From IMG/VR virus record IMGVR_UViG_2563366972_000004: a stretch of DNA of 46,713 nt; one strand, written 5' to 3'. Under the pieces are notes generated by a model. It was given only the letters and a program-made list of their open reading frames with translations. It was not told the origin of the DNA and searched no databases. Below are positions 6,039 to 46,713 of this stretch, one piece after another (position 1 is the first letter of the stretch; each line of letters begins with the position of its first letter). Origin of the DNA: a virus (Duplodnaviria > Heunggongvirae > Uroviricota > Caudoviricetes). A program made the translations under genes and the position numbers.

Positions 6039-6731
6039 TTATCCGTGTTTTCTGTACGTCTGCGGCATGCTCCCAATAACCTTACCGAATATGAATACCC
6101 GGTTCATCTCGTCTTTCTCGATCGGGTCCCACGGTGAGTAGCTCTTGTTATCAGAGATAACCAGTAGCTTATCCTTCATCATTTGCAGGCGCTTTACATG
6201 GGCGGTGTCGTCATACAGAAACGCATAGATACCATCACCGTCGAAAGATTTAACCGTGATATCAACGAACAGCAGATCACCTGGTTCGATCGTTCCTGAC
6301 ATGCTGTCACCACGCACGTTAATGATGCGGATATTTTCCGCCTTCCTGCCATCGAACATGTGACGAGCATCGTCAAACGAGTATTCAACCGAGCGTAGAA
6401 CTTCTACAAACTCACGGTTGATTACACCCGGCCCGGCACTGACTTCTATATCAAGAACGTCAATTTTGAAGTATTTGGAATGGCTGACAGCAGGCTTCCC
6501 TGATTGTTGACCGTCATTTCTCATCGGGCCTATGCCTGATGAGAGCCATTCTGTTCGAACACCCAATGCATTAGCTATTTCAACAATTTTTGTTGAGCCG
6601 CGCGCGTTGCCGCTTGTCAGTCTCCAGATTGTGGGTTGAGCTACGCCAGACGCCTTTGCAAGAGCGCCTTGAGACATTCCAGATTGTTCCATCGCTAGGT
6701 TTAAGCGATCAGCAAGAGTTTCTTTTTTCAT
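6039..6731 (-). CDS. cI: CI-like prophage repressor: N-terminal HTH, C-terminal S24 LexA-like peptidase domain (230 aa from ATG at 6731)
   Basis: HTH (MSQGALAKASGVAQPTIWRL) plus C-terminal autocleavage-type domain. The ATG at 6731 has no SD, consistent with a leaderless pRM transcript as in lambda; the track's longer ORF begins at an upstream TTG. Confidence 0.8.
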   Translation of the reverse strand: MKKETLADRLNLAMEQSGMSQGALAKASGVAQPTIWRLTSGNARGSTKIVEIANALGVRTEWLSSGIGPMRNDGQQSGKPAVSHSKYFKIDVLDIEVSAGPGVINREFVEVLRSVEYSFDDARHMFDGRKAENIRIINVRGDSMSGTIEPGDLLFVDITVKSFDGDGIYAFLYDDTAHVKRLQMMKDKLLVISDNKSYSPWDPIEKDEMNRVFIFGKVIGSMPQTYRKHG

Positions 6732-6841
6732 AAGTTTTAATTTATACGCTTGCGTATTGATGGTCAAAACACGTTTTGCTATTGCTTGGATTAATACGCA
6801 TTGCTATTATTCATTCATTGCAATACCAATAGGAATTGATA
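6732..6841. promoter_or_regulatory. OR / pRM-pR divergent control region
   Basis: Intergenic between divergent cI and cro; perfect palindrome ATACGC-tt-GCGTAT (6744-6757), TTGCTATTGC (6776-6785), TTGCTATT (6801-6808), palindrome ATTGCAAT (6817-6824). Confidence 0.6.
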
Positions 6842-7069
6842 ATGACAAATCAAACCATTCAACTCGCAATCAGTATTACAGGTAGTCAAAAACGACTGGC
6901 AGATCTATGCGGTGTAGCCCAACCCACAGTTTGGCGTTGGCTACACGGTGGCGGAATTGATGCCCGCTATGTAATGAAAATTGTCTCAGCCACTGGTGGA
7001 AAGATTAAACCAGCAGATATTCGTCCCGACCTCGCACCATTGTTTAACGCGAGTAATTCTGCCGCCTAA
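6842..7069 (+). CDS. cro: Cro-like HTH regulator (75 aa)
   Basis: Small HTH protein (GSQKRLADLCGVAQPTVWRWLHGG) divergent from cI; ATG at 6842 with AGGA 8 nt upstream. Confidence 0.75.
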   Translation: MTNQTIQLAISITGSQKRLADLCGVAQPTVWRWLHGGGIDARYVMKIVSATGGKIKPADIRPDLAPLFNASNSAA

Positions 7070-11946: not shown

Positions 11947-12264
11947 ATGGATGCTGGCGTTCTCGTTCTAGCAGTTCAACAATCCCCAATCACAAAACAA
12001 TTCACTGATAACGAACTTTGCACACTCGCCTGGTTATGGCGAGCAGGGAATGTGATGTTAATTGCCTACCAGAACGTTACTCATCTTCTTCAGGATGCGG
12101 AGCATGGTGAAGCTGGTCACTTCACTTCCATCGAGCAAGAATATCCCCAGATACTCAACAGAGCGCGAGCAATCCTCGTCCGAGAAACGGCACATGTAAA
12201 ACTTCAGCCGTGGCAGGATGATAAGTGGAGTCGAGTATTGCCGTATTTGCGTCAAATCTGTTAG
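11947..12264 (+). CDS. Hypothetical protein (105 aa)
   Basis: ORF in track with AGGGA upstream; not recognised; could be a gene remnant. Confidence 0.3.
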   Translation: MDAGVLVLAVQQSPITKQFTDNELCTLAWLWRAGNVMLIAYQNVTHLLQDAEHGEAGHFTSIEQEYPQILNRARAILVRETAHVKLQPWQDDKWSRVLPYLRQIC

Positions 12265-12361
12265 GAGTATAGCCGCCAGCCATGAGTGTTGTATTAAAAC
12301 AAGGATGTCTATATATGGGATAGCGAGAGTATGAATATCAGTTATTTTGAGAGTTAACTGA

Positions 12362-12405
12362 TTGTGAAATTAGTTTTTTTCACAAACGAGTGGGGTTACT
12401 ATGAT
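12362..12405 (+). promoter_or_regulatory. Candidate sigma70 promoter with overlapping inverted-repeat operator for the 309-aa gene
   Basis: Inverted repeat TTGTGAAA-7nt-TTTCACAA (12362-12385); -35-like TTCACA (12379-12384) and -10-like TATGAT (12400-12405), 15-nt spacer. Confidence 0.4.
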
Positions 12406-12468
12406 GAGTGTTCTAATGCATAGGGAACACCTAATTTTTTCAATGAATTCAAATTGATAGGATCAAAA

Positions 12469-13398
12469 ATGGCACAACAGAGAACTACCTCCCTCAGATC
12501 CATACCTTTAGACTTAGATGTTAAGCAAGAGGCTGTCATTAACGGTATAGAAATGGGGGTACTCGATAACGGAATTCCGTACCTTACTCAGAATGGGTTG
12601 GCAAATGTTTGTGGTGTTCAGCGTTTGCGAATCAAGGAAATTACCGATGAGTGGGCTCAATCCGTTGAGAACGGTATTTTCAAAAAAGGAAGAATGACTT
12701 TTATTGGTACATATCTTCTTAATGAAGGTTTTACAGATGAAAAACTTTATATACCAATAATTCGAAATGGTGTTGAGTACCATGCTTATCCAGATGTTGT
12801 ATGCATGGCTATACTTGAATACTATGCCTTTGAAGCAAAACAAGCAGAAAGTGAGACTGCAATTAGATCTTACAGAGAGCTTGCTAAAAAAGGCCTCAAG
12901 ACATTTATATACGAGGCGCTAAAATATCAACCGGAGGACCCGTGGAGGCATTACCATGACAGAGTATCTTTATTAAAAGATAAGGGAACCATACCTGATG
13001 GGTATTTCATTATATTTAATGAAATTGCAGGTATGATGGTAGATCTCATCAATGCTGGATTAGCGATTAATCAGCATACCGTACCTGATGGCAGTGTTGG
13101 TTCTTGCTGGGCGCGTCACTGGAAAGCAAAGGGGTTAGCAACAGAATTTGGAGAAAGAGTAGACTGTGAGCATTATTACCCTGAAGATTTTCTTCAGGCA
13201 AGTTCCAATCCTCAGATCATTAATGCCTATCCTGATTCTGCATTGTCAGAGTTTCGTAGATGGTTTAAGCATGAATATTTAACCACAAAGTTCCCACCGT
13301 ATATTCTTAAAAAATCAAACGTGCTTCCTGGTGGTACAGAAGATGCTAATCGTCTGATAGAAGCTTTCAAAAAATCAGAGCTAGAAAATAAACCATAA
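12469..13398 (+). CDS. Unrecognised prophage accessory protein (309 aa from ATG at 12469)
   Basis: ORF in track; ATG at 12469 with AGGA 8 nt upstream; AT-rich; not recognised. Contains YPD-x12-EAK, a possible PD-(D/E)xK-like nuclease motif (tentative). Confidence 0.6.
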   Translation: MAQQRTTSLRSIPLDLDVKQEAVINGIEMGVLDNGIPYLTQNGLANVCGVQRLRIKEITDEWAQSVENGIFKKGRMTFIGTYLLNEGFTDEKLYIPIIRNGVEYHAYPDVVCMAILEYYAFEAKQAESETAIRSYRELAKKGLKTFIYEALKYQPEDPWRHYHDRVSLLKDKGTIPDGYFIIFNEIAGMMVDLINAGLAINQHTVPDGSVGSCWARHWKAKGLATEFGERVDCEHYYPEDFLQASSNPQIINAYPDSALSEFRRWFKHEYLTTKFPPYILKKSNVLPGGTEDANRLIEAFKKSELENKP

Positions 13399-15084: not shown

Positions 15085-15468
15085 ATGCGTGATATTCAGA
15101 TGGTTCTTGAGCGTTGGGGAGCGTGGGCGGCTAATAATCATGAAGATGTGACCTGGTCGTCCATTGCCGCCGGTTTTAAGGGATTAATTACTTCAAAAGT
15201 AAAATCTCGCCCGCAATGTTGTGACGATGACGCGATGATTATTTGCGGGTGCATGGCCCGTCTGAAAAAGAACAACAGCGATTTGCACGATTTATTAGTA
15301 GATTATTATGTAGTCGGTATGACATTCATGTCACTGGCAGGTAAGCATTGCTGCTCTGATGGTTATATCGGGAAAAGGTTACAGAAGGCTGAGGGCATAA
15401 TTGAAGGGATGTTAATGGCATTAGATATCCGGTTAGAGATGGATATCGTTGTTAATAACTCTAATTAA
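15085..15468 (+). CDS. quuD: Late-gene antiterminator Q (QuuD-like), 127 aa
   Basis: Position after the nin region and before the lysis genes; Cys-rich zinc-binding segment ([16 protein letters not shown]...CCSDGY); GGAG upstream of the ATG at 15085. Confidence 0.8.
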
Positions 15469-19519: not shown

Positions 19520-19780
19520 GATGCACGTTGTGATATGTAGATGATAATTATTATCATTTTTCGGGTCCTTTCCGGCGATCCGACAGGTTACGGGGCGGCG
19601 ACCTCGCGGGTTTTCGCTATTTATGAAAATTTTCCGGTTTAAGGCATTTCCGTTCTTCTTCGTCGTAACTTAATGTTTTTATTTAAAATACCCCCTGAAA
19701 AGAAAGGAAACGACAGGTGCTGAAAACGAGCTTTTGGGCCTCTGTCGTTTCCTTTCTCTGTTTTTGGCCGTGGAATGAAC
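19520..19780. other. cos: cos region: cosQ-cosN-cosB; 12-nt cohesive-end sequence GGGCGGCGACCT at 19593-19604
   Basis: Sequence from about 19580 to 19780 matches the recalled lambda genome ends (..CGACAGGTTACG|GGGCGGCGACCTCGCGGGTTTTCGCTATTTATGAAAATTTTCCGG..). Confidence 0.85.
19773..19780. repeat. Target site duplication GAATGAAC (left copy)
   Basis: Identical 8 bp immediately flank both ends of the IS66-family element. Confidence 0.85.
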
Positions 19781-19810
19781 GTAAGCGGCTCGCCAGAACC
19801 GTATTGATAT

Positions 19811-21382
19811 TTACCGAGTGGTCAGAGCAACCTTCCAGGGCAACAGATCGCGCACCCGGTTTGCCGGCCAGTCCGGGATATGTTCAATGACGTAACGCAG
19901 CCATTTTTCTGGCTCCACATTGTTCAGGCGGCATGTGCCGATCAGCGAGTACAACACCGCCGTATGTTCGCCACCGCTGTCGGAACCCGCGAACAGCCAG
20001 TTTTTCCGGCCTACGGCCACTCCCCGTAAGGCGTTCTCTGCGATGTTGTTGTCGATTTCCACCCAGCCATTACTGCAGTACACGTTCAGGCTGTCCCACT
20101 GTTTCAGCAGGTATGCGAACGCTTTTGCCGTATCTGAGTGACGCGACAGTGTTTTCATCTGAGTCTGTATCCAGTCATACAGTGACTGCATCAGTGGCGC
20201 AGCTCTGGCTTTTCTTGCCGCCAGACGCTGTTCTGCTGAACATCCCCGGACCTCCGCCTCAATGGCATACAGTTCACCGATACGCTGCAGGGCTTCCGTG
20301 GTGATATCGGTGGGCGCTCTTGCATGCACATCGTGGATTTTTCTCCGGGCATGAGCCATACACGCGGCTTCCGTTATTCTGCCGGATTCGTATAACGCCC
20401 GGTAACCACCGTAAGCATCGGCCTGAAGCACACCGCTGTAACCGGCCAGGTGATTCTGTGGATGGATACCTTTCCGGTCCGGACTGTACGCGAACCAGAC
20501 CGCCGGGGGCATCTGTGAACCGGCGTTACGGTCATCACGGACGTAGACCCACAGCCGGGCGGTCCGGGTTTTACCGCTGCCCGGCTCCTGGACCGGGACG
20601 GGGATATCATCAGCATGGACTTTACCGGGCATCAGCACATACTGGCGCAGGACGTCATACAGCGGCTCCAGCAGTTCAGCAACGGCACCTGTCCAGCGCC
20701 CCAGTGTGGCACGGCTCAGCTCCACTCCCTGACGACGGTATATTTCTGACTGACGGTATAACGGCAGATGGTCTGCATATTTCCCGGTGACAACATGAGC
20801 CAGAAGCCCCGCTCCGGCATAACTGCGTGTAATGGGTTTTGAAGGCACCGGTGCCTGCACGATATGGTCGCACCGGCAACAGGCCAGTTTCGGACGTTGT
20901 GTTTCGATGACCTTAAAGGCGCTGCTGATAAGTTCCAGTTGCTCTGACACATCACATCCCAGAGAAGTGAGGTCACCGCCGCAGGCCGGGCAGCATTCCT
21001 CTTCCGGCCGGATGACCCGGGTTTCACGGGGAAGTGAGGCCGGTAACGGTTTACGGGCTGAAGACTGGCGCAGGGCGGATGGCAGTGCCGGGTCATATTG
21101 CTCACCCAGTGTTTCCGCCATTTCTTCCTGAAGTGCGCTGATTCGCTCCTGTGCTTCCTGTATCTGCCGTTCGGTTTTTGCGCGAAGTTTTTCTGAGCTT
21201 TTACCGAACTGCATACGCTGCAGTTTCGCAACCAGCGCCTTCAGTCGGTTGATTTCGGAAGCATAAGCCGCCACCCGCTGTGAGAGCAGGCGGGTGTATT
21301 CAGCCATCTGGCGGATGGTGTCCTGTTGCGTCTGCAACAGTGCCCGCAGGCGGGCGTTCTCATGAGCAAGTGAGGTGTCCAT
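19811..21382 (-). CDS. IS66-family transposase TnpC (523 aa)
   Basis: Leucine-zipper N-terminus, Cys-rich CCPACG...CCRCDH motif, typical IS66 TnpC length. Confidence 0.85.
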
Positions 21383-21401
21383 ATCCTCACTTTACAACGG
21401 G

Positions 21402-21749
21402 TTATATGCGGATTCCAGCGCGTTCCGTTCGTTTCGGGTGCTTCCAGTTGATACCTTCAAGAAGCATGGATAACTGAGCCGGAGTAAGGTGCACCTTGCC
21501 GTCGCGGGTGACCGGCCAGACGAAGCGGCCCCGCTCCAGGCGTTTGGTGAAGAGGCACAGTCCGTCGCTGTCAGCCCACAGCACTTTTATCTGGTCACCC
21601 CGGCGTCCGCGGAAGATGAACAGGTGTCCGGAGAACGGGTCATCCTTCAGGACGTTCTGAACTTTTGATGCCAGGCCGTTAAAGCCATTCCGCATGTCAG
21701 TAATACCGGCAACCAGCCAGATACGTGAACCGGCAGGGAGAGATATCAT
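21402..21749 (-). CDS. IS66 accessory protein TnpB (115 aa)
   Basis: Typical IS66 orf2 size and position; overlaps orf1 stop. Confidence 0.8.
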   Translation of the reverse strand: MISLPAGSRIWLVAGITDMRNGFNGLASKVQNVLKDDPFSGHLFIFRGRRGDQIKVLWADSDGLCLFTKRLERGRFVWPVTRDGKVHLTPAQLSMLLEGINWKHPKRTERAGIRI

Positions 21750-22399
21750 CAGTGGCTGCTCCCTTTCATTTCGCGGATAAGTGTCTGTAATAACGCCGGC
21801 GTCAGTTTACCTTTAAGCCTGAGAGTTCCGGCCGGCAGAACCAGCTCACAGCACAGACTGTCTGGCGGTGTATTTATCTGTTCAGGTATCTGCACTGGTG
21901 CCGGGATTTTATTATCCGGCTCCGGAGTTAACGTCACGGGAAGCAGCGATGTTTCATGTTCGCCGGGCGGCTGCAGGCCGCCGTTACGCCAGAGATGCCG
22001 CCAGTTGAAGAGCAGGTTATCGTTGATTCCGTTCTCACGAGCTATTTGTGCGACACAGGCACCGGGTAAAAGAGTTTGCTGAACAAGTCTCCATTTAAAC
22101 TCCGGTGAAAATCGGTTCCGGCGGGTTTTCTCTGCTTTCACAGGCTGAGTCACTGTCGGGGTTGAAGGATATCGCCCCGGGAAAAGAGCCCGGGCCAGTT
22201 GCCTGCAGGAATATTCACCGGAAAGGGGCCAGTCAGTGAATACCTGGTGAAATCGCTTCACCAGAGAAAAAATGGCGGTTTTGCTGACACCAGTCTGCGC
22301 AGAAATGCGCGGGTACGACAGTGACTCGTCAAATCTCAGCTGTAGCACACGCAGGATCAATTCCGGATTATCTGCCAGTACCGCCTTTCGTGCATTCAT
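21749..22399 (-). CDS. IS66 accessory protein TnpA/orf1 (216 aa)
   Basis: First ORF of the IS66 operon with N-terminal HTH-like region. Confidence 0.7.
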   Translation of the reverse strand: MNARKAVLADNPELILRVLQLRFDESLSYPRISAQTGVSKTAIFSLVKRFHQVFTDWPLSGEYSCRQLARALFPGRYPSTPTVTQPVKAEKTRRNRFSPEFKWRLVQQTLLPGACVAQIARENGINDNLLFNWRHLWRNGGLQPPGEHETSLLPVTLTPEPDNKIPAPVQIPEQINTPPDSLCCELVLPAGTLRLKGKLTPALLQTLIREMKGSSH

Positions 22400-22484
22400 C
22401 TTAAATGTCCTTTTACTGCGAAAATGGACATTAGTATCGGAAACAGGAAAGGGAGGCGAAAGACGGTTTAAATGAGGCGCTTAC

Positions 22485-22492
22485 GAATGAAC
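22485..22492. repeat. Target site duplication GAATGAAC (right copy)
   Basis: Second copy; ends 1 bp before the Nu1 ATG (22494). Confidence 0.85.
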
Positions 22493-32841: not shown

Positions 32842-35403
32842 ATGGCTGAACCGGTAGGCGATCTGGTCGTTGATTTGAGTCTGGATGCGGCCAGATTTGA
32901 CGAGCAGATGGCCAGAGTCAGGCGTCATTTTTCCGGTACGGAAAGTGATGCGAAAAAAACAGCGGCAGTCGTTGAACAGTCGCTGAGCCGACAGGCGCTG
33001 GCTGCACAGAAAGCGGGGATTTCCGTCGGGCAGTATAAAGCCGCCATGCGTATGCTGCCTGCACAGTTCACCGACGTGGCCACGCAGCTTGCAGGCGGGC
33101 AAAGTCCGTGGCTGATCCTGCTGCAACAGGGTGGTCAGGTTAAGGACTCCTTCGGCGGGATGATCCCCATGTTCAGGGGGCTTGCCGGTGCGATCACCCT
33201 GCCGATGGTGGGGGCCACCTCGCTGGCGGTGGCGACCGGTGCGCTGGCGTATGCCTGGTATCAGGGCAACTCAACCTTGTCCGATTTCAACAAAACGCTG
33301 GTCCTTTCCGGCAATCAGTCGGGGCTGACGGCAGATCGTATGCTGGTCCTGTCCAGAGCCGGGCAGGCGGCAGGGCTGACGTTTAACCAGACCAGCGAGT
33401 CACTCAGCGCACTGGTTAAGGCGGGGGTAAGCGGTGAGGCTCAGATTGCGTCCATCAGCCAGAGTGTGGCGCGTTTCTCCTCTGCATCCGGCGTGGAGGT
33501 GGACAAGGTCGCTGAAGCCTTCGGGAAGCTGACCACAGACCCGACGTCGGGGCTGACGGCGATGGCACGCCAGTTCCATAACGTGACGGCGGAGCAGATT
33601 GCGTATGTTGCTCAGTTGCAGCGTTCCGGCGATGAAGCCGGGGCATTGCAGGCGGCGAACGAGGCCGCAACGAAAGGGTTTGATGACCAGACCCGCCGCC
33701 TGAAAGAGAACATGGGCACGCTGGAGACCTGGGCAGACAGGACTGCGCGGGCCTTCAAATCCATGTGGGATGCGGTGCTGGATATTGGTCGTCCTGATAC
33801 CGCGCAGGAGATGCTGATTAAGGCAGAGGCTGCGTTTAAGAAAGCAGACGACATCTGGAATCTGCGCAAGGATGATTATTTTGTTAACGATGAAGCGCGG
33901 GCGCGTTACTGGGATGATCGTGAAAAGGCCCGTCTTGCGCTTGAAGCCGCCCGAAAGAAGGCTGAGCAGCAGACTCAACAGGACAAAAATGCGCAGCAGC
34001 AGAGCGATACCGAAGCGTCACGGCTGAAATATACCGAAGAGGCGCAGAAGGCTTACGAACGGCTGCAGACGCCGCTGGAGAAATATACCGCCCGTCAGGA
34101 AGAACTGAACAAGGCACTGAAAGACGGGAAAATCCTACAGGCGGATTACAACACGCTGATGGCGGCGGCGAAAAAGGATTATGAAGCGACGCTGAAAAAG
34201 CCGAAACAGTCCGGCGTGAAGGTGTCTGCGGGCGATCGTCAGGAAGACAGTGCTCATGCTGCCCTGCTGACGCTTCAGGCTGAACTCCGGACGCTGGAGA
34301 AGCATGCCGGAGCAAATGAGAAAATCAGCCAGCAGCGCCGGGATTTGTGGAAGGCGGAGAGTCAGTTCGCGGTACTGGAGGAGGCGGCGCAACGTCGCCA
34401 GCTGTCTGCACAGGAGAAATCCCTGCTGGCGCATAAAGATGAGACGCTGGAGTACAAACGCCAGCTGGCTGCACTTGGCGACAAGGTTACGTATCAGGAG
34501 CGCCTGAACGCGCTGGCGCAGCAGGCGGATAAATTCGCACAGCAGCAACGGGCAAAACGGGCCGCCATTGATGCGAAAAGCCGGGGGCTGACTGACCGGC
34601 AGGCAGAACGGGAAGCCACGGAACAGCGCCTGAAGGAACAGTATGGCGATAATCCGCTGGCGCTGAATAACGTCATGTCAGAGCAGAAAAAGACCTGGGC
34701 GGCTGAAGACCAGCTTCGCGGGAGCTGGATGGCAGGCCTGAAGTCCGGCTGGAGTGAGTGGGAAGAGAGCGCCACGGACAGTATGTCGCAGGTAAAAAGT
34801 GCAGCCACGCAGACCTTTGATGGTATTGCACAGAATATGGCGGCGATGCTGACCGGCAGTGAGCAGAACTGGCGCAGCTTCACCCGTTCCGTGCTGTCCA
34901 TGATGACAGAAATTCTGCTTAAGCAGGCAATGGTGGGGATTGTCGGGAGTATCGGCAGCGCCATTGGCGGGGCTGTTGGTGGCGGCGCATCCGCGTCAGG
35001 CGGTACAGCCATTCAGGCCGCTGCGGCGAAATTCCATTTTGCAACCGGAGGATTTACGGGAACCGGCGGCAAATATGAGCCAGCGGGGATTGTTCACCGT
35101 GGTGAATTTGTCTTCACGAAGGAGGCAACCAGCCGGATTGGCGTGGGGAATCTTTACCGGCTGATGCGCGGCTATGCCACCGGCGGTTATGTCGGTACAC
35201 CGGGCAGCATGGCAGACAGCCGGTCGCAGGCGTCCGGGACGTTTGAGCAGAATAACCATGTGGTGATTAACAACGACGGCACGAACGGTCAGATAGGTCC
35301 GGCTGCTCTGAAGGCGGTGTATGACATGGCCCGCAAGGGTGCCCGTGATGAAATTCAGACACAGATGCGTGATGGTGGCCTGTTCTCCGGAGGTGGACGA
35401 TGA
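32842..35403 (+). CDS. H: Tape measure protein H (853 aa)
   Basis: Size and position; matches recalled lambda gpH features. Confidence 0.95.
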   Translation: MAEPVGDLVVDLSLDAARFDEQMARVRRHFSGTESDAKKTAAVVEQSLSRQALAAQKAGISVGQYKAAMRMLPAQFTDVATQLAGGQSPWLILLQQGGQVKDSFGGMIPMFRGLAGAITLPMVGATSLAVATGALAYAWYQGNSTLSDFNKTLVLSGNQSGLTADRMLVLSRAGQAAGLTFNQTSESLSALVKAGVSGEAQIASISQSVARFSSASGVEVDKVAEAFGKLTTDPTSGLTAMARQFHNVTAEQIAYVAQLQRSGDEAGALQAANEAATKGFDDQTRRLKENMGTLETWADRTARAFKSMWDAVLDIGRPDTAQEMLIKAEAAFKKADDIWNLRKDDYFVNDEARARYWDDREKARLALEAARKKAEQQTQQDKNAQQQSDTEASRLKYTEEAQKAYERLQTPLEKYTARQEELNKALKDGKILQADYNTLMAAAKKDYEATLKKPKQSGVKVSAGDRQEDSAHAALLTLQAELRTLEKHAGANEKISQQRRDLWKAESQFAVLEEAAQRRQLSAQEKSLLAHKDETLEYKRQLAALGDKVTYQERLNALAQQADKFAQQQRAKRAAIDAKSRGLTDRQAEREATEQRLKEQYGDNPLALNNVMSEQKKTWAAEDQLRGSWMAGLKSGWSEWEESATDSMSQVKSAATQTFDGIAQNMAAMLTGSEQNWRSFTRSVLSMMTEILLKQAMVGIVGSIGSAIGGAVGGGASASGGTAIQAAAAKFHFATGGFTGTGGKYEPAGIVHRGEFVFTKEATSRIGVGNLYRLMRGYATGGYVGTPGSMADSRSQASGTFEQNNHVVINNDGTNGQIGPAALKAVYDMARKGARDEIQTQMRDGGLFSGGGR

Positions 35404-35729
35404 AGACCTTCCGCTGGAAAGTGAAACCCGGTATGGATGTGGCTTCGGTCCCTTCTGTAAGAAAGGTGCGCTTTGGTGATGGCTATTCTCAGCGAGCGCC
35501 TGCCGGGCTGAATGCCAACCTGAAAACGTACAGCGTGACGCTTTCTGTCCCCCGTGAGGAGGCCACGGTACTGGAGTCGTTTCTGGAAGAGCACGGGGGC
35601 TGGAAATCCTTTCTGTGGACGCCGCCTTATGAGTGGCGGCAGATAAAGGTGACCTGCGCAAAATGGTCGTCGCGGGTCAGTATGTTGCGTGTTGAGTTCA
35701 GCGCAGAGTTTGAACAGGTGGTGAACTGA
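35400..35729 (+). CDS. M: Minor tail protein M (109 aa)
   Basis: Lambda order and size. Confidence 0.9.
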   Translation: MKTFRWKVKPGMDVASVPSVRKVRFGDGYSQRAPAGLNANLKTYSVTLSVPREEATVLESFLEEHGGWKSFLWTPPYEWRQIKVTCAKWSSRVSMLRVEFSAEFEQVVN

Positions 35730-36427
35730 TGCAGGATATCCGGCAGGAAACACTGAATGAATGCACCCGTGCGGAGCAGTCGGCCAGCGTGGTGCTCTGG
35801 GAAATCGACCTGACAGAGGTCGGTGGAGAACGTTATTTTTTCTGTAATGAGCAGAACGAAAAAGGTGAGCCGGTCACCTGGCAGGGGCGACAGTATCAGC
35901 CGTATCCCATTCAGGGGAGCGGTTTTGAACTGAATGGCAAAGGCACCAGTACGCGCCCCACGCTGACGGTTTCTAACCTGTACGGTATGGTCACCGGGAT
36001 GGCGGAAGATATGCAGAGTCTGGTCGGCGGAACGGTGGTCCGGCGTAAGGTTTACGCCCGTTTTCTGGATGCGGTGAACTTCGTCAACGGAAACAGTGAC
36101 GCCGATCCGGAGCAGGAGGTGATCAGCCGCTGGCGCATCGAGCAGTGCAGCGAACTGAGCGCGGTCAGTGCCTCTTTTGTACTGTCCACGCCGACGGAAA
36201 CGGACGGTGCCGTTTTTCCGGGACGTATCATGCTGGCCAACACCTGCACCTGGACCTATCGCGGTGATGAGTGCGGTTATCACGGTCCGGCGGTCGCGGA
36301 TGAATATGATCAGCCGACGTCCGATATCACGAAGGATAAATGCAGCAAATGCCTGAGCGGCTGTAAGTTTCGCAATAACGTCGGCAACTTTGGCGGCTTC
36401 CTTTCCATTAACAAACTTTCGCAGTGA
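35729..36427 (+). CDS. L: Minor tail protein L (232 aa)
   Basis: Lambda order and size; Cys-rich C-terminus. Confidence 0.9.
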   Translation: MQDIRQETLNECTRAEQSASVVLWEIDLTEVGGERYFFCNEQNEKGEPVTWQGRQYQPYPIQGSGFELNGKGTSTRPTLTVSNLYGMVTGMAEDMQSLVGGTVVRRKVYARFLDAVNFVNGNSDADPEQEVISRWRIEQCSELSAVSASFVLSTPTETDGAVFPGRIMLANTCTWTYRGDECGYHGPAVADEYDQPTSDITKDKCSKCLSGCKFRNNVGNFGGFLSINKLSQ

Positions 36428-36432
36428 ATCCC

Positions 36433-37176
36433 ATGACAGAGACAGAATCAGCGATTCTGGCGCACGCCCGGCGATGTGCGCCAGCGGAGTCGTGCGGCTT
36501 CGTGGTGAGAACACCGGAGGGGGAAAGATATTTTCCCTGCGTGAATATCTCCGGTGAGCCGGAGGCGTATTTCCGGATGTCGCCGGAGGACTGGCTGCGG
36601 GCAGAGATGCAGGGTGAGATTGTGGCGCTGGTCCACAGCCACCCCGGTGGTCTGCCCTGGCTGAGTGAGACCGACCGGCGGCTGCAGGTGCAGAGTGATT
36701 TGCCGTGGTGGCTGGTTTGCCGGGGGGCGATTCACAAGTTCCGCTGTGTGCCACATCTTTCCGGGCGGCGCTTTGAGCACGGGGTGACGGACTGTTACAC
36801 GCTGTTCCGGGATGCTTACCATCTGGCGGGGATTGAGATGCCGGATTTTCATCGCGAGGATGACTGGTGGCGTCACGGTCAGAATCTCTATCTGGATAAT
36901 CTGGAGGCCACAGGGCTGTATCAGGTGCCGTTGTCATCAGCACAACCGGGCGATGTGCTGCTGTGCTGTTTTGGTTCATCGGTGCCGAATCATGCCGCCA
37001 TTTACTGTGGTGACAGCGAGCTGCTGCACCATATTCCTGAACAACTGAGCAAACGAGAGAGGTACACCGACAAATGGCAGCGACGCACACACTCCCTCTG
37101 GCGTCACCGGGAATGGCACGCATCTGCCTTTACGGGGATTTGCAACGATTTGGCCGCCGCATCGACCTTCGTGTGA
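36433..37176 (+). CDS. K: Tail assembly protein K (NlpC/P60 + JAB/MPN-like)
   Basis: Lambda order; HSHPGG motif; start taken at the ATG at 36433 (the track's ORF begins at a GTG at 36424). Confidence 0.85.
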   Translation: MTETESAILAHARRCAPAESCGFVVRTPEGERYFPCVNISGEPEAYFRMSPEDWLRAEMQGEIVALVHSHPGGLPWLSETDRRLQVQSDLPWWLVCRGAIHKFRCVPHLSGRRFEHGVTDCYTLFRDAYHLAGIEMPDFHREDDWWRHGQNLYLDNLEATGLYQVPLSSAQPGDVLLCCFGSSVPNHAAIYCGDSELLHHIPEQLSKRERYTDKWQRRTHSLWRHREWHASAFTGICNDLAAASTFV

Positions 37177-37745
37177 AAACGGGGGCTGAAGCCATCCGCG
37201 CACTGGCCACACAGCTCCCGGCGTTTCGTCAGAAACTGAGCGACGGCTGGTATCAGGTACGGATTGCCGGGCGGGACGTCAGCACGTCCGGGTTAACGGC
37301 GCAGTTACATGAGACTCTGCCTGACGGCGCTGTGATTCATATTGTTCCCAGAGTCGCCGGGGCCAAGTCAGGGGGCGTATTCCAGATTGTTCTGGGGGCT
37401 GCCGCCATTGCCGGATCATTCTTTACTGCCGGAGCCACCCTTGCAGCATGGGGGGCAGCCATTGGGGCCGGTGGTATGACCGGCATCCTGTTTTCTCTCG
37501 GTGCCAGTATGGTGCTCGGTGGTGTGGCGCAGATGCTGGCACCGAAAGCCAGAACTCCCCGTACACAGACAACGGATAACGGTAAGCAGAACACCTATTT
37601 CTCCTCACTGGATAACATGGTTGCCCAGGGCAATGTTCTGCCTGTTCTGTACGGGGAAATGCGCGTGGGGTCTCGCGTGGTTTCTCAGGAGATCAGCACG
37701 GCAGACGAAGGGGATGGTGGTCAGGTTGTGGTGATTGGTCGCTGA
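37074..37745 (+). CDS. I: Tail assembly protein I (223 aa)
   Basis: Lambda order and size; overlaps the K 3' end in another frame. Confidence 0.9.
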   Translation: MAATHTLPLASPGMARICLYGDLQRFGRRIDLRVKTGAEAIRALATQLPAFRQKLSDGWYQVRIAGRDVSTSGLTAQLHETLPDGAVIHIVPRVAGAKSGGVFQIVLGAAAIAGSFFTAGATLAAWGAAIGAGGMTGILFSLGASMVLGGVAQMLAPKARTPRTQTTDNGKQNTYFSSLDNMVAQGNVLPVLYGEMRVGSRVVSQEISTADEGDGGQVVVIGR

Positions 37746-37804
37746 TGAAAAACGTTTATGTGAAACCGCCTCCGGGCGGTTTTGTCGTTTATGGAGCGTG
37801 AGGA

Positions 37805-40800
37805 ATGGGTAAAGGCAGCAGTAAGGGGCATACTCCGCGCGAAGCGAAGGACAACCTGAAGTCCACGCAGTTGCTGAGTGTGATCGATGCCATCAGCGAA
37901 GGGCCGATTGAAGGTCCGGTGGATGGATTAAAAAGCGTGCTGCTGAACAGTACGCCAGTGCTGGACAGTGAGGGGAATACCAACATCTCCGGCGTCACGG
38001 TGGTGTTCCGGGCCGGTGAGCAGGAGCAGACACCGCCGGAGGGATTTGAATCCTCCGGCTCCGAGACGGTGCTGGGTACGGAAGTGAAATACGACACGCC
38101 GATCACCTGGACCATCACGTCGGCAAACATTGACCGACTGCGTGTTACCTTCGGCGTGCAGGCACTGGTGGAAACCACCTCAAAGGGGGACAGGAATCCG
38201 TCGGAAGTCCGCCTGCTGGTTCAGATACAGCGTAATGGTGGCTGGGTGACGGAAAAAGACATCACCATTAAGGGCAAAACCACCTCGCAGTATCTGGCCT
38301 CGGTGGTGGTGGGTAACCTGCCGCCGCGCCCGTTCAGTATACGGATGCGCAGGATGACGCCGGACAGCACCACAGACCAGCTGCAGAACAAAACGCTCTG
38401 GTCGTCATACACCGAAATCATCGATGTGAAACAGTGCTACCCGAACACGGCACTGGTCGGTGTGCAGGTGGACTCGGAGCAGTTCGGCAGCCAGCAGGTG
38501 AGCCGTAATTATCATCTTCGCGGGCGCATTCTGCAGGTGCCGTCGAACTATAACCCGCAGACGCGGCAATACAGCGGTATCTGGGACGGAACGTTTAAAC
38601 CGGCATACAGCAACAACATGGCCTGGTGTCTGTGGGATATGCTGACCCATCCGCGCTACGGCATGGGGAAACGTCTTGGTGCGGCGGATGTGGATAAATG
38701 GGCGCTGTATGTCATCGGCCAGAATTGCGACCAGTCGGTGCCGGACGGCTTTGGCGGCACGGAGCCGCGCATCACCTGTAATGCCTGGCTGACCACACAG
38801 CGCAAGGCGTGGGATGTGCTCAGTGATTTCTGCTCGGCGATGCGCTGTATGCCGATATGGAACGGGCAGACGCTGACGTTCGTGCAGGACCGACCATCAG
38901 ATAAGGTGTGGACCTATAACCGCAGTAATGTGGTGATGCCGGATGATGGCGCGCCGTTCCGCTACAGCTTCAGCGCCCTGAAGGACCGCCATAATGCCGT
39001 TGAGGTGAACTGGATTGACCCGGATAACGGCTGGGAGACGGCGACAGAGCTTGTGGAGGACACGCCGGCCATTCTCCGTTACGGTCGTAACGTCACGAAG
39101 ATGGATGCCTTTGGCTGTACCAGCCGGGGGCAGGCACACCGCGCCGGGCTGTGGCTGATTAAAACGGAACTGCTGGAAACGCAGACCGTGGACTTCAGCG
39201 TGGGCGCGGAAGGGCTTCGCCATGTGCCGGGCGATGTTATTGAAATCTGCGATGATGACTATGCCGGTATCAGCATCGGTGGTCGCGTGCTGGCGGTGAA
39301 CAGCCAGACCCGGACGCTGACGCTCGACCGTGAAATCACGCTGCCATCCTCCGGCACCACGCTGATAAGCCTGGTTGACGGAAAGGGCAATCCGGTCAGC
39401 GTGGAGGTCCAGTCCGTCACCGACGGCGTGAAGGTAAAAGTGAGCCGTGTTCCTGACGGCGTTGCCGGATACAGCGTGTGGGGGCTGAAGCTGCCGACGC
39501 TGCGCCAGCGACTGTTCCGCTGCGTGAGTATCCGTGAGAACGACGACGGCACGTATGCCATCACCGCCGTGCAGCATGTGCCGGAAAAAGAGGCCATCGT
39601 GGATAACGGGGCGCACTTTGACGGCGACCAGAGCGGCACGGTGAATGGTGTCACGCCGCCAGCGGTGCAGCACCTGACTGCCGAAGTCACCGCAGACAGC
39701 GGGGAATATCAGGTGCTGGCGCGCTGGGACACACCGAAGGTGGTGAAGGGCGTGAGCTTCCTGCTCCGTCTGACCGTAACAGCGGACGACGGCAGTGAGC
39801 GGCTGGTCAGCACGGCCCGGACGACGGAAACCACATACCGCTTCACACAACTGGCGTTGGGGAACTACAGGCTGACAGTCCGGGCGGTAAATGCGTGGGG
39901 ACAGCAGGGCGATCCGGCATCGGTATCGTTCCGGATTGCCGCACCGGCAGCGCCGTCTCGGATTGAGCTGACACCGGGCTATTTTCAGATAACCGCCACG
40001 CCGCATCTTGCGGTTTATGACCCGACGGTACAGTTTGAGTTCTGGTTCTCGGAAAAACGGATTGCGGATATCAGGCAGGTTGAAACCAGCGCGCGTTATC
40101 TTGGTACGGCACTGTACTGGATAGCCGCCAGTATCAATATCAAACCGGGCCATGATTATTATTTTTACGTTCGCAGTGTGAACACCGTTGGCAAATCGGC
40201 ATTCGTGGAGGCTGTCGGTCAGCCGAGTGATGATGCATCAGGCTATCTGGATTTTTTCAAAGGCGAGATAGGGAAAACCCATCTGGCTCAGGAGCTGTGG
40301 ACGCAGATTGATAACGGTCAGCTTGCGCCTGACCTGACTGAAATCAGGACGTCCATAACGGATGTCAGCAATGAAATAACACAGACCGTCAATAAGAAAC
40401 TGGAAGACCAGAGTGCAGCGATCCAGCAGATACAGAAGGTTCAGGTTGATACAAATAATAACCTGAACAGCATGTGGGCAGTGAAGCTGCAGCAGATGCA
40501 GGACGGACGCCTTTATATTGCGGGTATCGGTGCCGGTATTGAGAACACCCCTGACGGCATGCAGAGTCAGGTGCTGCTGGCAGCAGACAGGATTGCGATG
40601 ATTAATCCTGCGAATGGCAACACAAAGCCGATGTTTGTTGGTCAGGGCGATCAGATATTCATGAATGAAGTGTTCCTGAAACGCCTGACGGCCCCCACCA
40701 TTACCAGCGGCGGTAATCCTCCGGCATTTTCCCTGACATCAGACGGGAGACTGACGGCGAAAAATGCGGATATCAGTGGCAGTGTGAATGCGAACTCAGG

Positions 40801-41302
40801 AACGCTCAACAATGTCACGATTAACCAGAACTGTACGATTAAGGGCATGCTGGAGGCGACCCAGGTCAGAGGAGATTTCGTTAAAGCTGTATCAAAAGCC
40901 TTCCCGAAAAAAGTCGGTACGTGGGGTAACACGGAAACACCAAACGGTACGGTTACAGTCACCATCAGCGATGATCATAACTTTGACCGCCAGATTATTA
41001 TTCCGCCCATTATTTTTAACGGTATAGCGTATGACGATCCGGGGAGCGGAAATAACCCAGGAGGCACGCGATACACGGGTTATGGTTTTGAAGTTCGCAA
41101 AAACGGCGTATTAATCGCATCCAGAGAAACTAAAGGGGCCATTCCCGGTAGTTACAGTGCAGTTATTGATATGCCGAGTGGCAGGGGAAGCGTCACTCTG
41201 GAGTTTAAGATTTTCCAGAAAGGCAATCAGGGGGCAGGCAATATCACCGACTGTACGGTGATTGTGACCAAAAAAGCCGCTTCCGGCATCAGTATTCGTT
41301 GA
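37805..41302 (+). CDS. J: Central tail fibre / host specificity protein J (1165 aa)
   Basis: Lambda order; N-terminal [26 protein letters not shown]...; longer than the about 1132 aa I recall for lambda J. Confidence 0.9.
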
Positions 41303-41372
41303 AATATTTATAACCCCAATAAAGGGCGTCAGGAATGACGCCTTTTTTATTGCAGAAAAGCGAGAGGTAATT

Positions 41373-41972
41373 ATGCGTAAAGTTTGTGCAGCAATTTTGT
41401 CCGCAGCCATTTGTCTGGCCGTATCCGGTGCGCCTGCATGGGCGTCTGAACATCAGTCCACGCTGAGCGCGGGGTATCTTCATGCCTCGACGAACGTCCC
41501 CGGCAGCGATGATCTGAACGGGATTAACGTGAAATACCGTTATGAGTTTACGGACACACTGGGGCTGGTGACGTCATTCAGCTATGCAGGAGACAAGAAT
41601 CGCCAGCTGACCCGTTACAGCGATACCCGCTGGCATGAAGATTCCGTTCGTAACCGCTGGTTCAGCGTAATGGCGGGGCCGTCTGTGCGCGTGAATGAAT
41701 GGTTCAGCGCGTATGCGATGGCGGGTGTAGCTTACAGCCGTGTGTCGACTTTCTCCGGGGATTATCTTCGCGTAACTGACAACAAGGGGAAAAAGCACGA
41801 TGTGCTGACCGGAAGTGATGACGGTCGCCACAGCAACACGTCTCTGGCGTGGGGGGCTGGCGTGCAGTTTAACCCGACCGAATCCGTGGCCATTGATATT
41901 GCTTATGAAGGCTCCGGCAGTGGTGACTGGCGCACTGACGGTTTCATCGTGGGTGTCGGTTATAAATTCTGA
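41373..41972 (+). CDS. lom: Lom outer membrane protein (Ail/Lom family), 199 aa
   Basis: Signal peptide and beta-barrel pattern ending GYKF; matches recalled lambda Lom. Confidence 0.9.
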   Translation: MRKVCAAILSAAICLAVSGAPAWASEHQSTLSAGYLHASTNVPGSDDLNGINVKYRYEFTDTLGLVTSFSYAGDKNRQLTRYSDTRWHEDSVRNRWFSVMAGPSVRVNEWFSAYAMAGVAYSRVSTFSGDYLRVTDNKGKKHDVLTGSDDGRHSNTSLAWGAGVQFNPTESVAIDIAYEGSGSGDWRTDGFIVGVGYKF

Positions 41973-42030
41973 TTAGCCAGGTAACACAGCGTTATGACAG
42001 CCCGCCTGTTCAGGCGGGCTTTTTTGTGGG

Positions 42031-45000
42031 GTGAATATGGCAGTAAAGATTTCAGGTGTACTGAAAGACGGCACAGGAAAACCGGTACAGAACTGCACAA
42101 TCCAGCTGAAAGCAAAACGTAACAGCACCACGGTGGTGGTGAACACGGTGGCCTCAGAAAATCCGGATGAAGCCGGGCGTTACAGCATGGACGTTGAGTA
42201 CGGTCAGTACAGCGTTATTCTGTTGGTGGAAGGCTTCCCGCCATCGCATGCCGGGACCATCACCGTGTATGAAGACTCACAACCGGGTACGCTGAATGAT
42301 TTTCTTGGTGCCATGACGGAGGATGATGCCCGTCCGGAGGCACTGCGCCGTTTTGAACTGATGGTGGAAGAGGTGGCGCGTAACGCGTCCGCGGTGGCAC
42401 AGAACACGGCAGCCGCGAAGAAGTCAGCCAGCGATGCCAGCACATCAGCCCGTGAGGCGGCAACCCATGCGACTGATGCTGCAGGCTCAGCACGCGCAGC
42501 CAGCACGTCAGCCGGACAGGCCGCGTCGTCGGCTCAGTCAGCATCTTCCAGCGCAGGAACGGCATCAACAAAGGCCAGTGAAGCATCGAAAAGTGCTGCT
42601 GCTGCAGAGTCCTCAAAAAGCGCGGCAGCTACCAGTGCCGGTGCGGCGAAAACGTCAGAAACGAATGCGGCAGCGTCACAACAATCAGCAGCCACTTCTG
42701 CATCCGCCGCGACCACGAAGGCGTCAGAAGCAGCCACCTCAGCCCGGGATGCGGCGGCCTCAAAAGAGGCAGCGAAATCATCAGAAACGAGCGCATCATC
42801 AAGCGCCAGTAGTGCCGCTTCCTCGGCAACGGCGGCAGGCAATTCCGCGAAGGCGGCAAAGACGTCTGAGACAAACGCCAGGTCTTCTGAAACGGCAGCG
42901 TGACAGAGCGCCTCGGCTGCGGCAGGCTCAAAAACAGCGGCTGCGTCGTCTGCCAGTGCCGCGTCAACAAGTGCCGGGCAGGCCTCAGCCAGTGCCACCG
43001 CCGCCGGAAAATCGGCAGAAAGCGCCGCATCGTCTGCTTCAACAGCCACAACGAAGGCTGGCGAAGCCACTGAACAGGCCACGGCAGCAGCGAGGTCAGC
43101 TTCCGCAGCGAAGACATCCGAAACGAACGCGAAAGCGTCGGAAACCAGCGCAGAATCCTCAAAAACGGCTGCCGCATCGTCCGCCAGTTCGGCGGCGTCA
43201 TCGGCATCATCGGCGTCTGCTTCAAAAGATGAGGCGACCAGACAAGCGTCCGCAGCGAAGGGCAGCGCCACGACGGCATCCACGAAGGCGACAGAGGCAG
43301 CTGGCAGTGCGACGGCGGCAGCACAGAGCAAAAGTACGGCGGAATCCGCGGCAACGCGCGCCGAGACAGCGGCAAAACGGGCAGAGGATATTGCATCCGC
43401 CGTGGCGCTTGAGGATGCAAGTACGACGAAAAAGGGGATAGTACAGCTCAGCAGTGCGACCAACAGTACGTCTGAAACGCTGGCGGCAACGCCAAAGGCA
43501 GTAAAATCAGCCTATGACAATGCAGAGAAACGTCTGCAGAAAGACCAGAACGGCGCTGATATACCCGATAAGGGACGCTTCCTGAACAACATTAACGCGG
43601 TCAGTAAAACAGACTTTGCTGATAAGCGTGGTATGCGTTATGTGCGGGTTAACGCTCCTGCAGGTGCAACATCTGGAAAATATTACCCTGTTGTTGTTAT
43701 GCGTTCTGCTGGCTCAGTAAGCGAACTGGCATCAAGGGTCATTATCACCACGGCAACGCGAACCGCAGGCGATCCGATGAATAACTGCGAGTTTAACGGA
43801 TTTGTTATGCCTGGTGGCTGGACTGACAGGGGGCGTTATGCTTATGGAATGTTCTGGCAATATCAAAACAATGAACGAGCCATCCACTCAATAATGATGA
43901 GTAATAAGGGCGATGATTTGCGCTCTGTGTTCTATGTTGATGGCGCTGCTTTCCCTGTTTTTGCGTTTATCGAAGATGGCCTGTCAATATCCGCACCTGG
44001 TGCTGATCTCGTTGTTAATGATACGACCTATAAGTTTGGGGCAACAAATCCGGCGACTGAATGTATCGCGGCGGACGTTATCCTTGATTTTAAGAGTGGG
44101 CGTGGTTTTTATGAGTCTCATTCGTTAATCGTTAACGATAACTTGTCGTGCAAAAAACTTTTTGCCACAGACGAAATTGTAGCGCGTGGTGGTAATCAGA
44201 TTCGAATGATAGGTGGGGAGTATGGGGCATTATGGCGTAATGATGGCGCTAAAACTTACCTGCTGCTTACCAATCAAGGTGATGTTTATGGTGGCTGGAA
44301 TACATTAAGACCGTTTGCTATTGATAACGCAACCGGCGAACTGGTTATTGGAACCAAACTGTCCGCAAGTCTGAACGGTAATGCATTAACAGCAACAAAG
44401 CTGCAAACGCCAAGACGGGTTTCTGGTGTTGAGTTTGATGGTTCCAAAGATATTACTTTAACCGCTGCGCATGTGGCTGCTTTTGCCAGAAGGGCAACGG
44501 ATACATATGCCGATGCGGATGGTGGCGTTCCCTGGAATGCCGAATCAGGCGCTTATAATGTCACCCGCTCTGGCGACAGCTATATTCTGGTTAACTTCTA
44601 TACCGGAGTCGGAAGTTGCCGGACCTTGCAGATGAAGGCGCATTACAGAAATGGTGGTCTGTTCTACCGTTCTTCAAGAGACGGTTATGGTTTTGAGGAT
44701 GACTGGGCAGAAGTTTATACCTCGAAAAATCTTCCACCAGAAAGCTACCCAGTCGGCGCACCAATCCCGTGGCCATCAGATACCGTTCCGTCTGGTTATG
44801 CCCTGATGCAGGGGCAGACTTTTGACAAATCTGCTTACCCGAAACTTGCAGCCGCTTATCCGTCAGGCGTGATCCCTGATATGCGTGGCTGGACGATTAA
44901 GGGCAAACCTGCCAGTGGTCGGGCCGTATTGTCTCAGGAACAGGACGGCATTAAATCGCATACCCACAGCGCCAGCGCATCCAGTACAGATTTGGGGACG

Positions 45001-45450
45001 AAAACCACATCGTCGTTTGATTACGGCACTAAATCCACGAATAACACCGGGGCGCATACGCACAGTCTGAGTGGCTCTACGGGGTCTGCCGGTGCTCATA
45101 CTCATGGTAATGGTATTCGTTGGCCAGGAGGCGTCGGTTCTGCGTTAGCATTTTATGATGGCGGTGGGTTCACTTATGTCCAGGATTCACAGTATCAAGT
45201 AAGCCCGGGGACTTCTTCCAGTAGATCGTATTATCAACGTATTCAGACACAGTCAGCAGGTGCTCATACCCACTCGCTGTCTGGTACTGCAGCAAGTTCT
45301 GGCGCACATGCACATACTGTAGGTATTGGTGCGCATACGCACTCGGTTGCGATTGGCTCACATGGACACACCATCACCGTTAACGCTGCTGGTAACGCGG
45401 AAAACACCGTCAAAAACATCGCATTTAACTATATTGTGAGGCTTGCATAA
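42031..45450 (+). pseudogene. stf: Side tail fibre stf, one reading frame interrupted by a single in-frame TGA at 42901-42903
   Basis: Track ORFs 42031-42903 and 43402-45450 are in the same frame (both start coordinates are 1 mod 3). Hand translation shows the frame is open from 42904 to 45450 (..[15 protein letters not shown]..). Ala/Ser-rich repeats then C-terminal domain with GAHTHS repeats. Confidence 0.8.
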
Positions 45451-46025
45451 TGGCATTCAGAATGAGTGAACAACCACGGACCATAAAAATTTATAATCTG
45501 CTGGCCGGAACTAATGAATTTATTGGTGAAGGTGACGCATATATTCCGCCTCATACAGGTCTGCCAGCAAACAGTACCGATATTGCACCACCAGATATTC
45601 CTGCTGGCTTTGTGGCTGTTTTCAACAGTGATGAGGCATCGTGGCATCTCGTTGAAGATCATCGGGGTAAAACGGTTTATGACGTGGCTTCCGGCGACGC
45701 GTTATTTATTTCTGAACTCGGTCCGTTACCGAAAAATGTTACCTGGTTATCGCCGGAAGGGGAGTTTCAGAAGTGGAACGGCACAGCCTGGGTGAAGGAT
45801 ACGGAAGCAGAAAAACTGTTCCGGATCCGGGAGGCGGAAGAAACAAAAAACAACCTGATGCAGGTAGCCAGTGAGCATATTGCGCCGCTTCAGGATGCTG
45901 CAGATCTGGAAATTGCAACGGAGGAAGAAATCTCGTTGCTGGAAGCATGGAAAAAGTATCGGGTATTGCTGAACCGTGTTGATACGTCAACTGCACAGGA
46001 TATTGAATGGCCAGCACTGCCGTAG
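45450..46025 (+). CDS. tfa: Tail fibre assembly protein Tfa (191 aa)
   Basis: [54 protein letters not shown]... matches recalled lambda Tfa; start overlaps the stf stop (TAATG). Confidence 0.9.
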
Positions 46026-46122
46026 GGTAAAACATATAAATTCTATAATTAGATGTATCTTTCCATTTACGGCAAGGAAGGGGGCTTGGAAGACGTAAAG
46101 CATCTCACACCGAGATTATTTT

Positions 46123-46713
46123 TTATATGTCAGGTGTCTGAAGTTTTGCTTTGGCTCTTAAAATGGTTTGCCGCGAGGTTTTGAATTCCCGGGCAATGGC
46201 ACTTATACTTACACCTGACTTAATTCGTTCGAATACCGCCTGTTTCTGTTCTTCATTTAACACAGGTGGTCGACCAAAACGTTTCCCTGCGCCGCGGGCT
46301 CTTACTATCCCGGAATGAGTGCGTTCAAGTAAAAGGTCTCGTTCAAATTCAGCGACTGCTGAAATTACTTGCATCATCATTTTTCCTGTTGGACTGGTCA
46401 GGTCAATGCCCCCCAATGCTAAGCAATGCACTCTGATACCTGTTTCGGTCAGTTGTTCCACTGTTTTCCTGATATCCATTGCATTACAACCAAGGCGATC
46501 CAGTTTTGTCACAATCAATTGATCACCACATTTCAGGCGAGCAAGCAACCGGTTAAAACCAGGACGCTCACTGGTTGCTGCTGAGCCGCTAATGTGTTCT
46601 TCGATTATTTGCTGAGGTTTGATTTTAAAACCTGCACTTTCGATTTCCCGGCGTTGATTTTCGGTGGTCTGATCCAGCGTTGATATCCGACAGTAAGCAA
46701 AAATTTGAGACAT
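46123..46713 (-). CDS. pin: Serine recombinase / DNA invertase, Pin-like (196 aa)
   Basis: N-terminal catalytic motif ([10 protein letters not shown]), C-terminal HTH; position after tfa as for pinR/pinQ in K-12 prophages. ATG is the last codon of the window (46711-46713). Confidence 0.85.

Follow-up and report, generated by a model that had tools for sequence, protein, structure and literature searches.

A rare opal codon interrupts the side tail fibre gene stf of a prophage in Escherichia coli KTE48

The side tail fibre gene stf of a lambda-like prophage, which occupies the DLP12 site in Escherichia coli KTE48, contains a single in-frame TGA at codon 289. We consider it very probable that this codon is a real G-to-T nonsense substitution (GGA to TGA, Gly289) and that the allele is a fibre-less, near-neutral null with a trace of leaky read-through. 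The gene lies in a stretch of viral DNA of 46,713 nucleotides (IMG/VR record IMGVR_UViG_2563366972_000004), the whole of which is called the window below; its relevant features are listed in Table 1.

Table 1. Features of the interrupted stf region and of the insertion element found in the same window
Feature	Position	Strand	Description
stf (side tail fibre gene)	42037..45450	+	1,137 codons and natural stop; interrupted at codon 289
Premature opal codon TGA, followed by C	42901..42903	+	From GGA (Gly289) by G-to-T transversion at 42901
Truncated ORF, 288 aa	42037..42903	+	Tail-attachment N-terminal domain and 154 aa of Ala/Ser-rich shaft
In-frame remainder of stf, 848 codons	42904..45450	+	Open, undecayed; encodes all distal and receptor-binding domains
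682-aa ORF from first in-frame GTG past the stop	43402..45450	+	Gene-caller product, ELG01507.1 in E. coli KTE48
tfa (tail fibre assembly), intact	45450..46025	+	Overlaps the stf stop codon; Pfam Caudo_TAP, 6.8e-43
IS66-family insertion (tnpA, tnpB, tnpC), 2,704 nt	19781..22484	-	Pfam DDE_Tnp_IS66, TnpB_IS66, HTH_Tnp_1

The codons around the interruption (bases 42895-42906) read GCA GCG TGA CAG, and the TGA is the sole stop of frame 0 across 42037-45447, a frame of 1,137 codons. Over the same interval frames 1 and 2 contain 31 and 71 stops, respectively, with about 50 expected from the base composition, and the probability that 848 codons stay open by chance is about 4e-17. A single stop in 1,137 codons, followed by 848 open codons, thus indicates one interrupted gene and not two. 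The two listed open reading frames, 42031-42903 and 43402-45450, share this frame (42031 and 43402 are both 1 mod 3), and a single-frame translation of 42031-45450 yields Ala/Ser-rich protein throughout, with one stop. An initial sequence-only reading, which had described a TGA at 42901-42903 splitting one stf frame, is borne out here, together with the flanking translation. Its expectation of a truncated product also stands, with a correction of the length from 290 to 288 aa. The gene has two candidate starts, GTG 42031 (ORF tool, annotation of phage PhiR34_1) and ATG 42037 (PGAP, lambda; MAVKISG..). Since the intact homologues annotated by PGAP and lambda itself start at the ATG, the truncated product has 288 aa, the value of 290 being obtained only from the GTG.

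The repaired Stf protein starts with the prophage tail-fibre N-terminal domain phage_tail_N (PF08400, residues 1-134, E = 2e-72), which in lambda-type stf, as the type is understood here, anchors the fibre to the tail. It further contains Gp34_trimer (trimerisation) at residues 663-762, Collar (tail collar) at residues 907-954, and Phage_fiber repeats at residues 1002-1015. To lambda orf401 the N-terminus shows 72% identity, and residues 903-1137, the C-terminal tip, show 69% identity to lambda orf314, so that the protein has the tip of a lambda-type Stf (His-rich, similar to T4 gp37 and homologous to the lambda Stf C-terminus). The order of genes, J (37805-41302), lom (41373-41972), stf, and tfa, is again that of lambda-type stf. 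The gene therefore has the N-terminal domain, surroundings, and tip of this type, and its frame is not uninterrupted, being broken by the TGA at codon 289. It represents the StfR type, with 1,137 codons compared to 774 in lambda. The exact Tfa protein of the window is widespread in E. coli prophages.

Only three substitutions in the whole stf gene are private to the window, and two of them are synonymous. The undecayed state of the gene past the stop fits a young lesion, and it would equally fit continued selection on a read-through product. The gene itself is a mosaic, in which the first ~3 kb are 99.2-99.4% identical to the common 1,132-aa DLP12-site allele, and the last ~375 nt (45076-45450) belong to a rarer tip allele covered by only five of the fetched loci. 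The Ala/Ser-rich part carries overlapping open reading frames of 263-335 aa (42534-43463 and 42629-43420 on the minus strand, 42434-43441 on the plus strand); these other-frame and antisense frames look like by-products of the repetitive GCN/TCN codons. Two sub-threshold Rfam matches to the Salmonella sRNA isrG lie antisense to stf on the minus strand (43078-43178 and 42600-42823; 25 and 21.5 bits versus a gathering score of 100; E = 1e-4 and 1e-3) and probably reflect homology of the underlying fibre gene, not an sRNA.

The ancestral state of the codon can be read from the relatives. The three closest homologues in E. coli (98.5-98.9% nucleotide identity; annotated as intact proteins of 1,137 aa, 'prophage tail fiber N-terminal domain-containing protein / stfR') have G at position 42901 and thus GGA (Gly), as do the phages PhiR34_1 and Kati. 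The alignment to intact stf genes hence supports a single-base nonsense change, and a stop combined with a separate downstream start was seen in none of the intact homologues.

The T allele is rare. A megablast probe of 55 nt, in which the T is flanked by 27 nt on either side and which can seed only on a 28-nt word including the T, was used together with its G version as a control; this pair replaced an earlier 75-nt probe, by which the differing base was not distinguishable. Neither the 5,426 complete E. coli genomes nor the 50,697 phage records contained a match to the T probe. With the G control, 2,274 places were matched in 1,793 of these 5,426 genomes, with up to six places per genome and 1,167 records matching exactly. 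A scan for the G/T pattern gave G in six of six cases among GTDB representative genomes, and 133 G versus one T in the loci then fetched, mostly IMG/VR contigs; in the final count, 141 of the 142 fetched homologous loci had G. A T-specific 24-mer matched one IMG/VR contig and was not found in JGI metagenomes. Exact-protein look-up of the 288-aa and 290-aa N-terminal products gave no match, which is explained by the KTE48 annotation, where no gene is called at this place except for a spurious antisense ORF (245 aa, without Pfam match). A protein search with the N-terminal fragment retrieved mostly contig-end partials and frameshifted fragments, and no second 288-aa product.

The sole other carrier of the T, and the contig matched by the 24-mer, is a prophage contig of 4,022 nt (IMGVR_UViG_2563366972_000008, below L070). 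It aligns to window positions 39223-43244 with 65 mismatches in 4,022 positions in a mosaic arrangement: L070 does not differ from the window in two blocks, 39566-41989 and the stop-bearing 42868-43081, and 40 of the differences fall within 42148-42867. Codon 289 is also the only stop in its stf, whose frame is open elsewhere up to where the locus ends. The presence of the T in L070 implies an age of the allele beyond that of a single clone. The simpler account of the T in both prophages would be common descent with later recombination in the flanks; recurrent mutation is a possible source as well, since the identical block is also common among G alleles. The sequence-only reading had seen a change from GGA to TGA, either a recent inactivating mutation or a site of low-level opal read-through, and had placed a Gly codon in lambda. 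The nonsense change and the GGA hold for this lineage, whose relatives have this codon; the aligned codon 289 of lambda is GAA (Glu, in ..SETAAERSAS..), and 'recent' has to be softened in view of the same T in the non-identical L070.

The likely consequences follow from the positions of the domains relative to the stop. With the G-to-T change at 42901, translation would end after 288 residues, and the product would keep the attachment domain and a part of the Ala/Ser-rich shaft without the trimerisation, collar, and receptor-binding regions. As the distal domains are missing, particles formed from this prophage would be without functional side fibres, and would depend on the central fibre J alone, like those of laboratory lambda. 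The tail of Ur-lambda bears a collar built from 12 copies of Stf residues 1-94, and its side fibres make adsorption 10- to 30-fold faster, leaving plaque counts unchanged (PMC12617516). The stf gene of laboratory lambda still encodes a 401-aa N-terminal fragment, and both Stf and Tfa are undetected in the virions (PMC10721106). By analogy, it is unlikely that the 288-aa fragment builds anything useful. The null allele would persist as neutral or nearly neutral, because side fibres are dispensable for lambda plaques and are readily and often lost, and a dormant prophage exerts no selection on them. That two non-identical prophages have this rare stop in common is a little surprising for such a neutral null allele.

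The stop is followed by C and thus lies in a leaky context. UGA is the leakiest stop in E. coli K-12, where it is read through, usually with Trp, at 0.7-6% in reporter hot spots (PMC11126739), and UGA with C at the +4 position terminates inefficiently in bacteria (PMC5289835). Given the weak termination at UGA-C in E. coli, some full-length Stf is probably made: a small fraction of ribosomes would insert Trp, and by comparison with such reporters a product Stf(W289) is plausible. We regard this read-through as an incidental leak and not as design, because the stop is absent from essentially all relatives. If the leak were instead selected, read-through by tRNA-Trp would set a low ratio of full-length to short Stf as a form of bet-hedging comparable to the Q-beta read-through protein. 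The leaky context would suit such a role, as would the 848 open and undecayed codons downstream and the presence of the allele in two different prophages, but the stop is not conserved, G being found at all but one of the fetched loci and at every complete-genome place, and the 70 nt downstream of the stop are no more stably folded than shuffled sequences (z = +0.96), so that no stimulatory structure follows it. Furthermore, a fibre would need three full-length chains, and the attachment-competent truncated form would be in large excess. Selection for the leak is thus very unlikely. That the opal allele has been kept because leakage at UGA-C gives a minority of fibre-bearing virions among fibre-less ones is likewise very unlikely in our view; if true, one genotype would yield both slow- and fast-adsorbing particles, and this could explain why two prophages that are not identical have this rare stop in common while the frame behind it is undecayed.

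Re-initiation downstream of the stop was also considered as a source of a distal product and rejected. The next in-frame start, GTG 43402, lies 167 codons past the stop, and the nearest GAGG is 14 nt upstream of it, with no well-spaced Shine-Dalgarno sequence; there is no well-placed restart signal, and the product would have no attachment domain. Judged from these features, the 682-aa ORF is not credible as an independent gene.

An error of sequencing or assembly, in which the true base is G and stf is intact, has two circumstances in its favor: the matched KTE48 assembly is a scaffold-level draft, and the stop falls in a repetitive Ala/Ser-rich region that is common to several prophage copies per genome. 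Nevertheless, the separately assembled and non-identical L070 has the same T at the same codon, which makes a one-off sequencing error very unlikely, and a collapse of paralogues cannot create a T that is absent from all of the sampled genomic copies. We therefore give very little credence to an error.

The identity of the window bears on a further explanation, that the stop was selected during plaque propagation in the laboratory, as was the stf frameshift of lambda PaPa. Stf+ lambda rapidly gives rise to mutants without fibres, which form large plaques and overtake it on agar (PMC2762979), and the phage records closest to the window are laboratory-propagated isolates, one of which, mEp332, has a split stf. 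However, the last 13.3 kb of the window (33402-46713) are 100.000% identical, the T included, to scaffold KB733034.1 of E. coli KTE48 (GCA_000352305.1), position 42901 corresponding to 1,356,542 of the scaffold. The exact 682-aa ORF starting at GTG 43402 is present there as ELG01507.1, annotated as 'hypothetical protein A1S5_01433'. The genes downstream in KTE48 encode YnaE, a methyltransferase, an AraC-type regulator, an omptin, and NfrA, and we take the ompT/nfrA side to be the right end of the DLP12 site, as on the K-12 map. The identity to the KTE48 scaffold implies that the window is a chromosomal prophage and not a plaque-propagated stock; a laboratory-propagated phage of the Brenes and Laub collection, which was suspected first, is ruled out by it. 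Together with the T in the second prophage contig, which belongs to another genome record, this leaves laboratory adaptation largely refuted and scarcely tenable. Recoding of the UGA as selenocysteine, suggested by an in-frame UGA in a species, E. coli, that possesses the machinery for selenocysteine, is effectively refuted, because the Rfam search near the stop detected no SECIS or other relevant family even at E up to 10, the fold is no better than shuffled, and in all relatives the sequence downstream is the same but comes after a Gly codon.

General decay of the prophage is not obvious, as all 55 other CDSs that the window has in common with the plaque-forming phage PhiR34_1 are full length and stop-free in the window. 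It has a second lesion beside the stf stop, an IS66-family insertion (tnpA, 216 aa; tnpB, 115 aa; tnpC, 523 aa) located 1 nt ahead of the nu1 start codon (ATG, 22494), in the interval from cos to the terminase genes. The element is flanked by an 8-bp target duplication, GAATGAAC, at 19773-19780 and 22485-22492, has the end GTAAGCG, and replaces a part of the nu1 ribosome-binding region; it may thereby impair the translation of Nu1 and the viability of the prophage. PhiR34_1 is without this element. The IS66/nu1 junction was not found in IMG/VR, and either the L070 prophage is without the insertion or the L070 contig stops short of this region.

Several other features of the prophage were observed. 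A Pin-type serine invertase (Resolvase and HTH_7 domains) is encoded on the minus strand at 46123-46713, 97 nt past tfa; no alternative inverted fibre-tip/tfa cassette lies between it and tfa, the window ends at its start codon, and it looks like an orphan invertase. Further downstream of the invertase KTE48 has a 61-aa tfa remnant (positions 15135-15320 of locus L145). At 11947-13398, where PhiR34_1 has ybcL and ybcM, the window encodes a 105-aa ORF with the P22 antirepressor C-terminal domain and a 314-aa ORF without Pfam match. The immunity region (6042-7045) is unlike that of PhiR34_1, cI being 82% identical over residues 24-251 and cro 48%, with flanks of 97-100% identity.

For annotation, the two open reading frames should be treated as one stf pseudogene and not as two genes; beyond that, the finding has little significance. 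A phage induced from this prophage, if any forms, is expected to be without side fibres, which would affect its adsorption rate, apparent host range, and plaque size. Given that a stop is open to suppression, the allele offers a possible natural test of the amount of read-through that fibres require.

A1 of Q-beta is a protein made by programmed UGA read-through. With this system, and with the UGA-C of prfB, the interrupted stf shares an in-frame UGA that has a long open frame behind it, UGA-C being a poor terminator (PMC5289835); it differs in having a stop that its relatives do not share and for which the analysis yielded no sign of a function. The intact StfR-type genes of E. coli prophages, PhiR34_1, and Kati are 97.5-98.9% identical to it in nucleotide sequence over the whole gene and have the same order of domains and the same neighbours, tfa and pin, but their codon 289 is GGA and their annotation is that of intact genes. 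Frameshifted stf alleles represent independent inactivations in the same region of the shaft. Phage mEp332 (PV340541.1, 4171-7571) has a frameshift in stf after approximately residue 185, and many chromosomal copies in E. coli are frameshifted after residue 185 or 195. These breaks recur after the same two residues, which suggests indel hot spots in the shaft-coding region, whereas the allele of the window is a rare substitution found in only two sequences. Judging from such alleles, disruption of stf is common in nature.

The closest parallel in kind is lambda PaPa (orf401/orf314), where stf, likewise placed in the order J, lom, stf, tfa, has a single-nucleotide lesion in the Ala/Ser-rich shaft that parts the attachment domain from the receptor-binding end, and where fibre-less particles infecting via J are likewise expected (PMC12617516, PMC10721106). 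The lesion of PaPa is a 1-bp deletion causing a frameshift, whereas in the window a substitution creates an opal stop at codon 289, in a gene of the longer, 1,137-codon StfR type that resides in a chromosomal prophage and not in a laboratory stock. In both, the frame is broken between the attachment and the receptor-binding ends; laboratory plaque selection belongs to PaPa and not to the window. The opal stop, unlike a frameshift, is partly suppressible by read-through. As far as its sequence tells, the stf gene described here is a pseudogene, a null or a weak hypomorph, and it adds a nonsense-type example to the known loss of stf in lambdoid phages.
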